Shown piece by piece: positions 29,053 through 31,039 of a stretch of DNA of 64,000 bases. The notes beneath the pieces are model-generated. The model was not told where the DNA came from. It made no database searches and saw only the letters and a program-made list of their open reading frames with translations. This DNA comes from an uncultured Bacteroidales bacterium. Its GTDB lineage: Bacteria; Bacteroidota; Bacteroidia; Bacteroidales; UBA10428. Made by a program: the position numbers and the translations under genes. The stretch is taken from the NCBI GenBank assembly GCA_964618645.1, contig CAZUBW010000001.1, positions 83,236 to 147,235 of the forward strand, given 5' to 3'. Each line of letters begins with the position of its first letter. Within the stretch, counting starts at the first letter, position 1.

Positions 29053-30831
29053 TTATTCGAGTTCAAGGTTTAACTTTTGCCTGAAGGCAGTTAAAGCAGG
29101 GTTCTTTTGGCTAAGATACCTGAATTTTTCTTCACTGGTGTATAATTTCACCTTTTGGTTTTCCGGTGCTTCTGATAGCCTTGCCACAATGGTAATCCTG
29201 TTGTTGCCAAAGGCATGTTGCAGGTATTTTTCAAGGTCGGACCGGGTGGTATTGTTGAAATCGTCCATCTGTGACCCGTTATTCAGGTCTACCTGAATGG
29301 CATCTTCACCGGCAATGACAGGTTCAACACTTCTGAGCGTAACAGCCATACGGGGCCTGCTTTCGCGGAGTTGTGCAGCGTATTCCGACCAATAATGATG
29401 TAACATTTCGGAAGTTAATGTTTTTGCAGGAGTATCGGTATCCAACCCCGCTTCTTCGTTGTCACCCTCCTCATTTTCAATGTCGACAGCATTAACTTCC
29501 GGTTTTCTGCCTGCCGCGTTCAGCGCTTCTTTAATTGATATCTGGTGAAATGACTGGCGACCATTGTCCGGTTCCTTTGTAAGCACCGGCTTTGGAACAG
29601 CGTTAGTAACAGTACCATTATTATCAAGGGCTGCCGGGGCAGATTCCTGGCGTGTTGATACAGGATTACTTCCGGCGGAATGCTCACTTATTTCCGGAAC
29701 CTGAAGTACCTCCTGTTCACGTATCAGGTTTTTTTTTTCGCCGGCAATGTTGCATAGCCGTATGAGTGCAATTTCGAGATGAAGACGCTGGTTTCGGCTT
29801 GCTTTATAGGATAGCTCGCACTGATTGCATATCTCCAATGCCCTGAAAAGAAAATCACTGCTGCATTTAACAGCCTGCTGACGATAACGGTTTTTCAACA
29901 CTTCGCTTACTTCGAGCAGCGGAAGTGTAGCTTCGTCGTGACAGACCAGCAGGTCGCGAAAATGCGATGACAGTCCGCCTAAAAAATTCTGTCCGTCGAA
30001 ACCACGCTGCAGGATATCGTTGAAAATAACCAGCGCTTTTGTGGCTGATCCCTCCAGGAAAACTTCGGTTATGTTGAAAAAATACTCGTAATCAAGCACA
30101 TTCAGGTTTTCGAGTACTTCGCGGTAGGTAATGTTCCGGTTTGAAAAACTGGCCACCTGATCAAAAATCGACAAGGCATCGCGCATGGCCCCGTCGGCTT
30201 TCAGTGCAATAACATTCAACGCCTCCTCCTCAAAAGCAATACCCTCCAAGGTTGCTACCTTGGCAAGGTAGGCCACAATGTCCTCAACCCTGATGCGATG
30301 AAAATCGAAGATCTGGCAACGCGACAATATGGTCGGAATAATTTTATGCTTTTCGGTTGTAGCCAAAATGAAAATTGCATGTTCGGGAGGCTCTTCCAAC
30401 GTTTTGAGAAACGCGTTAAAGGCTGCCTGCGAAAGCATATGTACCTCATCGATGATATAAATACTGTATTTCCCTACCTGGGGCAGGATTCTCACCTTTT
30501 CGATAAGGCTTCTGATGTCATCAACCGAGTTATTGGAAGCAGCATCGAGTTCGTGTATGTTAAATGACCTCGATTCGTTAAACGACTTACATGATTCGCA
30601 CTGGTCGCAGGCTTCGGTATCCGCCGTGCGGTTAAAACAATTGAGTGTTTTAGCAAAAATACGGGCGCATGTTGTTTTTCCTACCCCTCTCGGACCACAG
30701 AAAAGATATGCATGGGCTATCTGCTGCGTTCGGATGGCATTTTTAAGCGTGTTCGTAACCGAAGGCTGACCAACAACCGTATCAAAATTTACCGGCCGGT
30801 ATTTTCTTGCTGAAACAACAAAGTCACTCAT
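29053..30831 (-). CDS. dnaX: DNA polymerase III subunit gamma/tau
   Basis: RKYRP, Walker [10 protein letters not shown], zinc module CDQCESC, Walker [13 protein letters not shown] sensor, and a long C-terminal tau region. An A10 run at codons 365-368 is described in findings. Confidence 0.93.
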
Positions 30832-30920: not shown

Positions 30921-31039
30921 CCCTGACAGGGTTTTAAACCCTGTCAGGGGTCTGATGGGGTTTTAAACCCTGTCAGGGGTCTGATGGGGTTTTAAACCCT
31001 GTCAGGGGTCTGATGGGGTTTTAAACCCTGTCAGGGGTC
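30921..31039. repeat. 29-bp tandem repeat (~4 copies), each unit carrying the palindrome CCCTGTCAGGG; one inverted copy at the left end
   Basis: CCCTGTCAGGGG occurs at 30939, 30968, 30997 and 31026 (exact 29-bp period). CCCTGACAGGG at 30921 forms a perfect hairpin with the first unit. Confidence 0.9.

Follow-up and report, generated by a model that had tools for sequence, protein, structure and literature searches.

How does a bacterium whose dnaX gene is a single uninterrupted reading frame come to make both forms of the DnaX protein, the full-length tau subunit and the shorter gamma subunit, if indeed it makes both? The question is raised by a stretch of 64,000 nucleotides (nt) from an uncultured Bacteroidales bacterium of the GTDB lineage UBA10428 (GenBank assembly GCA_964618645.1, contig CAZUBW010000001.1, positions 83,236 to 147,235 of the forward strand), the whole of which is referred to here as the window. 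Its dnaX gene carries a run of ten A's (A10) on the coding, minus strand, at the boundary of domain III, and stop codons follow closely in both shifted frames. The known routes to gamma come from very few organisms, and the reason for two DnaX forms in bacteria is still under debate (bioRxiv 10.1101/2022.11.10.516041). One of these routes is the programmed transcriptional slippage of Thermus thermophilus dnaX (Larsen et al. 2000, as recounted in the passages of PMC1088944 and PMC5009743 that cite it). We propose here that this A10 run serves as a site of programmed transcriptional slippage of the Thermus type and that slippage is its main mechanism, a reading that comparison with related genes leads us to place at a probability of about 0.65. 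We hold it to be highly probable that the run functions in recoding in one way or another.

The zero frame encodes a tau of 592 amino acids (aa; 66.7 kDa) in one uninterrupted open reading frame (ORF), and its product matches the NCBIfam equivalog NF011531 with 796 bits against a cut-off of 685. The TIGR02397 model, dnaX_nterm, spans tau residues 6-360, and Pfam matches cover DNA_pol3_delta2, the ATPase lid and domain III (PF12169, ending at residue 363); the tau C-terminal domain is conserved among the loci compared below (tblastn) and falls in the precomputed family PF28557. Around the run the minus strand reads ATT GCC GGC GAA AAA AAA AAC CTG ATA CGT GAA, encoding E365, K366, K367 and N368, and the run begins five codons past the end of dnaX_nterm, that is, at the domain III boundary. 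The first-pass annotation of this DNA had described an A10 run in dnaX with stops near it in both alternative frames and a gamma-sized product ending at that boundary, and all three points stand on re-reading of the minus strand: the run, its position and its codon numbering are as it gave them, a TGA lies one codon after the run in the +1 frame and another lies three codons after it in the -1 frame (Table 1), and the predicted products of 368-371 aa end shortly after the domain models do. A message with one extra A, or a ribosome shifted by -1, would yield 371 aa ending in ...GEKKKPDT (42.0 kDa), two extra A's would yield 369 aa ending in ...GEKKKT, and one A fewer would yield 368 aa ending in ...GEKKT.

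Table 1. Features of the dnaX locus, with positions counted from the first letter of the window.
Feature	Position	Strand	Basis or remark
dnaX ORF, zero frame, full-length tau	29053..30831	minus	ORF list; NF011531, TIGR02397 and Pfam matches
Codons 1-363, AAA+ domains I-III, common to tau and predicted gamma	29743..30831	minus	Ends of PF12169 and dnaX_nterm
Hairpin CGGCTATGCAACATTGCCG, -5.7 kcal/mol, candidate nascent-RNA slippage stimulator	29742..29760	minus	3 nt (GCG) before run
A10 run (T10 on plus strand), putative slippery site	29729..29738	minus	Codons 365-368, GAA AAA AAA AAC
TGA, +1 frame (ACC TGA), would end mRNAs longer by two A's or shorter by one	29724..29726	minus	
TGA, -1 frame (CCT GAT ACG TGA), would end mRNAs with one extra A, or translation by -1-shifted ribosomes	29717..29719	minus	
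Codons 369-592, tau-only linker and C-terminal domain, missing from predicted gamma	29056..29727	minus	ORF and product prediction

One answer to the opening question would be that no recoding takes place, the run being a by-product of a Lys-rich linker (E-K-K-N/K) and of a preference for AAA codons, and tau alone being made. The composition of the window leaves room for this: it is AT-rich (44.5% GC), the A10 run is its only homopolymer of at least nine bases, and a model of independent and identically distributed bases expects 0.25 A/T runs of ten or more per window, so that one A10 in 64 kb is not improbable and the run by itself is not significant. It gains weight from where it sits and from being conserved. 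We thus followed the run in ortholog DNA retrieved with domain III alone as the query, which kept the run from biasing what was fetched, and added eight further close relatives from contig look-ups; a metagenome scan gave mostly human-gut Bacteroides without the run and few close relatives, and served as the negative group. Among the 120 best homologs, which reach down to 55% identity, about 115 have E/Q-K-K-N/K after domain III in the protein, and the linker around it diverges fast. At the DNA level, 64 distinct Bacteroidales dnaX sequences have a run of nine to twelve A's at the boundary of domain III (A9 in five, A10 in 46, A11 in 11 and A12 in two), at a distance of 2-40 nt from the end of that domain. 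It occupies codon phase 1 in 48 sequences, phase 2 in 13 and phase 0 in three, the peptides that it encodes vary accordingly among EKKN, EKKK, QKKN, xKKK and KKKN, and its differences in length come from substitution of flanking bases rather than from insertions or deletions.

These genes do prefer the codons that a by-product would require, AAA making up 64% of Lys codons elsewhere in them and GAA 65% of Glu codons, and many Bacteroidaceae have no run. An unbroken run is nevertheless kept across three codon phases and differing peptides where Lys-Lys dipeptides elsewhere in the same genes are AAAAAA in just 40% of cases, which points to selection on the nucleotide run and not on a lysine patch; selection normally acts, furthermore, against long A/T runs in coding DNA, where they pose a mutational as well as a transcriptional hazard (PMC1088944). 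Many uncultured Bacteroidales lineages have the run, as do loci labelled Rikenellaceae, Paludibacter, Tannerellaceae and Prolixibacteraceae, and it is missing in 85 distinct loci of Bacteroides, Phocaeicola, Prevotella, Paraprevotella, Alloprevotella and Mediterranea type. A search of the run-less dnaX genes for an in-frame A_AAA_AAG/A heptamer with a near -1 stop gave no consistent candidate. As a separate observation, run-less loci of Bacteroides, Phocaeicola and Prevotella type share a linker motif, G-G-R-S-P-K-x-x-I-K-P-[IVL]-F, 10-25 codons past domain III (L011, L014, L015, L018, L021, L022 and L028-L031 are among them).

The stops that follow the run carry the argument further. They were counted in the 54 distinct single-ORF sequences, with the same genes as null, taken either over the whole gene or over the linker. 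A -1 frame stop falls within three codons in 91% of the sequences (null 32% whole gene, 31% linker) and a +1 frame stop within six codons in 85% (32% and 30%). Both occur jointly in 80%, against 9% for the whole gene and 8% for the linker, an enrichment of about ninefold that the absence of recoding does not predict; the joint figure for the corresponding region of run-less homologs is 26%. In 59 of the 64 run-bearing sequences an out-of-frame stop, mostly TGA, starts within 6 nt of the run end, in contexts such as CCTGA, GCCTGA, GCTGA and GTCTGA, and in 35 of the 54 the -1 stop comes only one codon past the run. That contexts, offsets and phases are so varied argues for stops maintained by selection. 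An alignment of orthologs had been proposed at first pass as the check on a likeness to the Thermus arrangement, and its outcome, with the run kept at the homologous boundary in 64 distinct sequences and both stops present at a rate of 80% against 8-9%, supports that likeness by comparison.

Two loci with a different layout of A's may be mentioned beside these. L006 and L085 have two consecutive runs, A8 and then A9 about 10 nt on, 20-50 nt past domain III (linker TCA GAA AAA AAA GAA ATT CCT CAA AAA AAA ACG), and their out-of-frame stops lie farther from the run than in most loci.

One further locus shows the same run from the opposite side. In L080, from a Prolixibacteraceae metagenome-assembled genome (JAFGAF010000470.1, positions 2554-2570), the zero frame reads CAA AAA AAA AAG TAA (A10-G-TAA) and ends there, while a 207-codon ORF in the -1 frame is a homolog of tau C-termini from other loci (best E 6e-16). 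Gamma is thus in frame and tau shifted, the reverse of the arrangement in the window, where no zero-frame stop directly follows the run and the zero frame runs on for 225 codons. The tau product of dnaX is essential, and L080 can make it solely by recoding at the run, which speaks once more against the run as a by-product; we regard the absence of recoding as very unlikely. The occurrence of single-ORF and two-ORF forms at the same run implies efficient recoding there, a point that Atkins et al. make for dnaX (PMC5009743). Two-ORF dnaX genes with A10 were described by Antonov et al. (2013; PMC3711429) in Flavobacterium, Cytophaga, Capnocytophaga, Chlorobi and Coraliomargarita, and transcriptional realignment was deduced for them by alignment with Thermus. 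Like the window they carry an A10 at this boundary, they belong to related phyla and classes, and with L080 they share the whole layout; they differ from the window in that gamma is their zero-frame product and tau needs the shift, and in that the single-ORF form of the window, unlike theirs, is not visible to frameshift-gene finders.

Homopolymers are also error-prone in sequencing and hypermutable, and the run could for that reason belong to the DNA level, either as an assembly error or as a tract of replication slippage (phase variation) by which subpopulations turn tau on and off. Assembly problems are possible in two loci, L051, which contains N's, and L150, where A11-TGA stands on a 1.2-kb contig and may be either a second two-ORF case or a homopolymer error. 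For the window itself, the same A10 context recurs in an independent Logan assembly (L169); across many projects the zero frame is intact in 61 of the 64 sequences, the run changes length by flanking substitution and not by insertion or deletion, and heritable loss of an essential tau would be lethal. An origin at the DNA level is accordingly the least probable of the explanations considered here, and we give it almost no weight.

If the run is a recoding site, the next question is which machine does the recoding. In the reading that we favour it would be RNA polymerase. On the T10 template the whole RNA:DNA hybrid of 9-10 bp would consist of rA:dT, so that the nascent RNA could realign, and part of the dnaX mRNA pool would gain extra A's or occasionally lose one. 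Messages with A10 or A13 would give tau by ordinary translation (592 or 593 aa), those with one extra A would be read into CCT GAT ACG TGA, and those with two extra A's or one fewer into ACC TGA; the output would be a gamma-like protein of 368-371 aa (about 42 kDa), with AAA+ domains I-III and without the tau C-terminal region. Runs of nine A's or nine T's slip efficiently in bacteria, Thermus dnaX uses A9, and in Thermus one extra A and two extra A's are both frequent in the mRNA (PMC5009743 section 43, PMC1088944). We infer slippage itself, its efficiency, and the making and use of the short product from comparison.

The alternative is that ribosomes shift by -1 on A_AAA_AAA or A_AAA_AAC, or slide on poly(A), giving gamma from mRNA of uniform length. 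Signals known to promote such shifts were looked for around the run. A 3' stem-loop in the window folds no better than shuffles (z -1.2 to +0.1), and over 54 loci downstream structure shows no enrichment (mean z = -0.27) and no common structure. A pairing of AACCTG (29730-29725) with CAGGTT (29703-29698), pointed out at first pass, does exist as complementarity, but as a candidate stimulator it was rejected: 22 of 200 shuffles fold as well (z = -1.2), the pairing vanishes in a larger-context fold, and it is not conserved. The Rfam family for the E. coli dnaX frameshift element is RF00382; a search of positions 29400-30000 returned no dnaX frameshift element, and its sole match at E <=10 was to Ysr100, below threshold and due to chance. 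No AGGAGG-like sequence that could serve as a Shine-Dalgarno-like stimulator lies in the 20 nt before the run (TGCAACATTGCCGGCG), in-frame A_AAA_AAG does not occur in the window, whose heptamers are A_AAA_AAA and A_AAA_AAC, and a terminator and promoter scan around the site found neither at the run.

A structure that is found lies on the other side of the run. In 56 loci the best hairpin ending 0-3 nt before the run is more stable than at random positions of the same gene (median percentile 0.21; at or below 0.10 in 32% of loci and at or below 0.25 in 62%), and the source of this signal is a clade of 26 distinct sequences, the window among them, in which the run comes 7 nt after domain III in the layout L-I-R-L-C-N-I-x1-x2-E-K-K. 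In a chimera test, in which the upstream 39 nt of each locus were joined to the x1-x2 codons of every other locus, the native combinations of the 26 sequences have a mean of -6.95 kcal/mol and the chimeras one of -4.27 kcal/mol (permutation z = -6.5, with none of 20000 permutations as low), whereas ten control positions in the variable linker give z between +1.0 and -2.4 at native means of -1.5 to -3.3 kcal/mol. Under synonymous recoding with the protein kept, all 26 z-scores are negative (mean -1.78; p <=0.1 in 54%). The two 'variable' residues before the run thus seem to be chosen partly by RNA pairing. Since the pairing register differs between sublineages, a single fixed-register consensus for the hairpin was dropped. 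Column-wise covariation can be illustrated on eight sequences that share a register, a subset chosen after the fact, the unbiased tests being the register-free ones: in these the Arg codon's third base forms a pair with the second base of x1, A-U in five (x1 = Val) and G-C in three (x1 = Ala), and is unpaired in none.

A hairpin this near to the run would melt inside a decoding ribosome, and its position is the one from which a nascent hairpin acts on RNA polymerase, as it does in intrinsic termination and in Roseiflexus IS630; in the clade of the window it probably assists or tunes slippage from 0-3 nt upstream of the run. Taken over the clade, it resembles the stem-loop-assisted transcriptional slippage of the Roseiflexus IS630 element (Penno et al. 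2015, as summarised in PMC5009743 section 43), where, according to that summary, a nascent-RNA hairpin likewise stands directly 5' of a 10-nt slippage motif in terminator-like geometry. There, however, the motif is the heteropolymer T5C5, the outcome is one specific 1-nt deletion and the hairpin is strictly required, whereas the homopolymer here should slip unaided, and its hairpin varies in register, is particular to a lineage and is weak in the window. A co-adapted 5' hairpin specific to one clade is possibly what is new here, as a variant feature of a slippage site. We tentatively go one step further, to a possibility that we rate below even odds: in this one Bacteroidales clade the hairpin, through compensatory changes that dictate the two residues before the run, and an A10 of the length of the hybrid would together form a terminator-like module that sets the tau:gamma ratio at RNA polymerase. 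If true, this would be the first case of a homopolymer slippage site in an essential cellular gene being tuned by a hairpin, and the whole device would have been lost in Bacteroides and Prevotella.

Between polymerase and ribosome, five observations favour RNA polymerase. First of all, a ribosomal heptamer would need 7 nt, but the length maintained is 9-12 nt, mostly 10, which is about the length of the RNA:DNA hybrid. Second, stops are kept in both shifted frames, as would be expected if messages longer by one A and by two were both common, whereas a purely -1 ribosomal mechanism needs the -1 stop alone. Third, downstream structure, a Shine-Dalgarno-like sequence and an Rfam match are all missing. 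Fourth, A_AAA_AAC and A_AAA_AAA are much less shift-prone in E. coli than A_AAA_AAG (PMC5009743). Finally, the conserved hairpin is adjacent to the run on its 5' side, where the ribosome would have unwound it. We therefore judge ribosomal shifting, as the source of gamma, to be unlikely.

Several points nevertheless weigh against slippage as we propose it. The run holds in-frame A_AAA_AAA and A_AAA_AAC, slippery heptamers are in frame in every codon phase of the run, and ribosomes are known to slide on iterated AAA codons (PMC4363877). A G follows the run in 27 of the 64 relatives, which in the common phase makes A_AAA_AAG with the -1 stop one codon on, the layout of E. coli dnaX; ribosomal -1 shifting or poly(A) sliding could thus contribute, or even dominate. 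Since the loci are related by descent, the percentages given above overstate the number of independent events. The run-less dnaX of Bacteroides, Phocaeicola and Prevotella type means that gamma made in this way is not indispensable in Bacteroidales. The hairpin of the window is weak (p about 0.2), at the 25th percentile against random positions and at z = -0.77 against synonymous recoding, and in lineages whose run lies at least 15 nt after domain III the hairpin signal (z = -2.7) is not specific, one control position reaching z = -3.0; the hairpin claim is for this reason limited to the clade with the run at 7 nt. The control in question, 50 nt after the run in loci such as L026, L075 and L146 (native -4.5 against chimera -3.6 kcal/mol), is an observation in its own right and hints at local structure near the conserved ...E-L-P-L-P-S-K coding segment.

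Set beside the known systems, transcriptional slippage at the A10 run finds its closest counterpart in Thermus dnaX. The gene is the same, a single ORF encodes tau, an A-run on the sense strand follows the part equivalent to gamma, near stops stand in both shifted frames, and the predicted short product lacks the tau C-terminus; in related loci the run with GCCTGA reproduces the Thermus context (PMC3711429 Suppl. Fig. S3). The window's site thus agrees, as far as sequence can tell, with every feature by which a Thermus-type dnaX slippage site is recognised. It differs in length, A9 in Thermus against A10 here and A9-A12 in relatives, in its phylum, which is Bacteroidota (Bacteroidales), in that slippage is here a prediction from sequence, and in the co-adapted hairpin that immediately precedes the run in the clade of the window, the Thermus site being taken as the citing papers present it. 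E. coli dnaX, which reaches gamma by -1 frameshifting, is alike in the gene, in a gamma made of domains I-III, in an A-rich site and in a -1 UGA soon after it, but its A_AAA_AAG, upstream Shine-Dalgarno-like sequence and downstream stem-loop have no equivalent in the window, and by its sequence the site does not qualify as an E. coli-type ribosomal element.

The papers that could be searched for dnaX together with Bacteroidetes and slippage or realignment describe A10 dnaX in other Bacteroidota in the two-ORF form alone (PMC3711429), and the comparative screen of Baranov et al. (2005; PMC1088944) explicitly left out slippage that truncates the product. The present case is well supported comparatively and is experimentally tractable, and it is not a new principle. 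Bacteroidales, a large and ecologically important order, joins the lineages that appear to use the Thermus solution. In the single-ORF form, standard annotation shows one plain coding sequence, and the proteomes of run-bearing organisms probably hold an unannotated DnaX species of about 42 kDa. Run-bearing lineages and the run-less Bacteroides and Prevotella form, in addition, a natural experiment on the need for gamma, and the 5' hairpin, if functional, ties homopolymer slippage to the terminator-like mechanics of RNA polymerase.

A few further observations concern the surroundings of dnaX. A scan of the window for tRNA genes, made with the supply of tRNA-Lys in mind, found none. In one subgroup of related loci (L016, L017, L024, L025, L045, L050 and L060) the dnaX ATG is preceded, at about 70 nt, by a conserved A9 tract (near position 2736 in L050 and near position 796 in L060); the tract sits immediately upstream of TTTG ... 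TAnnTTTG motifs that resemble Bacteroidetes promoters, and it may be a UP-element-like A tract. In the window itself, much of the 237-nt intergenic region directly upstream of the dnaX start codon is occupied by a perfect 29-nt tandem repeat of 3.8 copies (30929-31039; plus-strand unit GGGTTTTAAACCCTGTCAGGGGTCTGATG), which has no match in the window beyond its four copies and each unit of which contains short inverted repeats.

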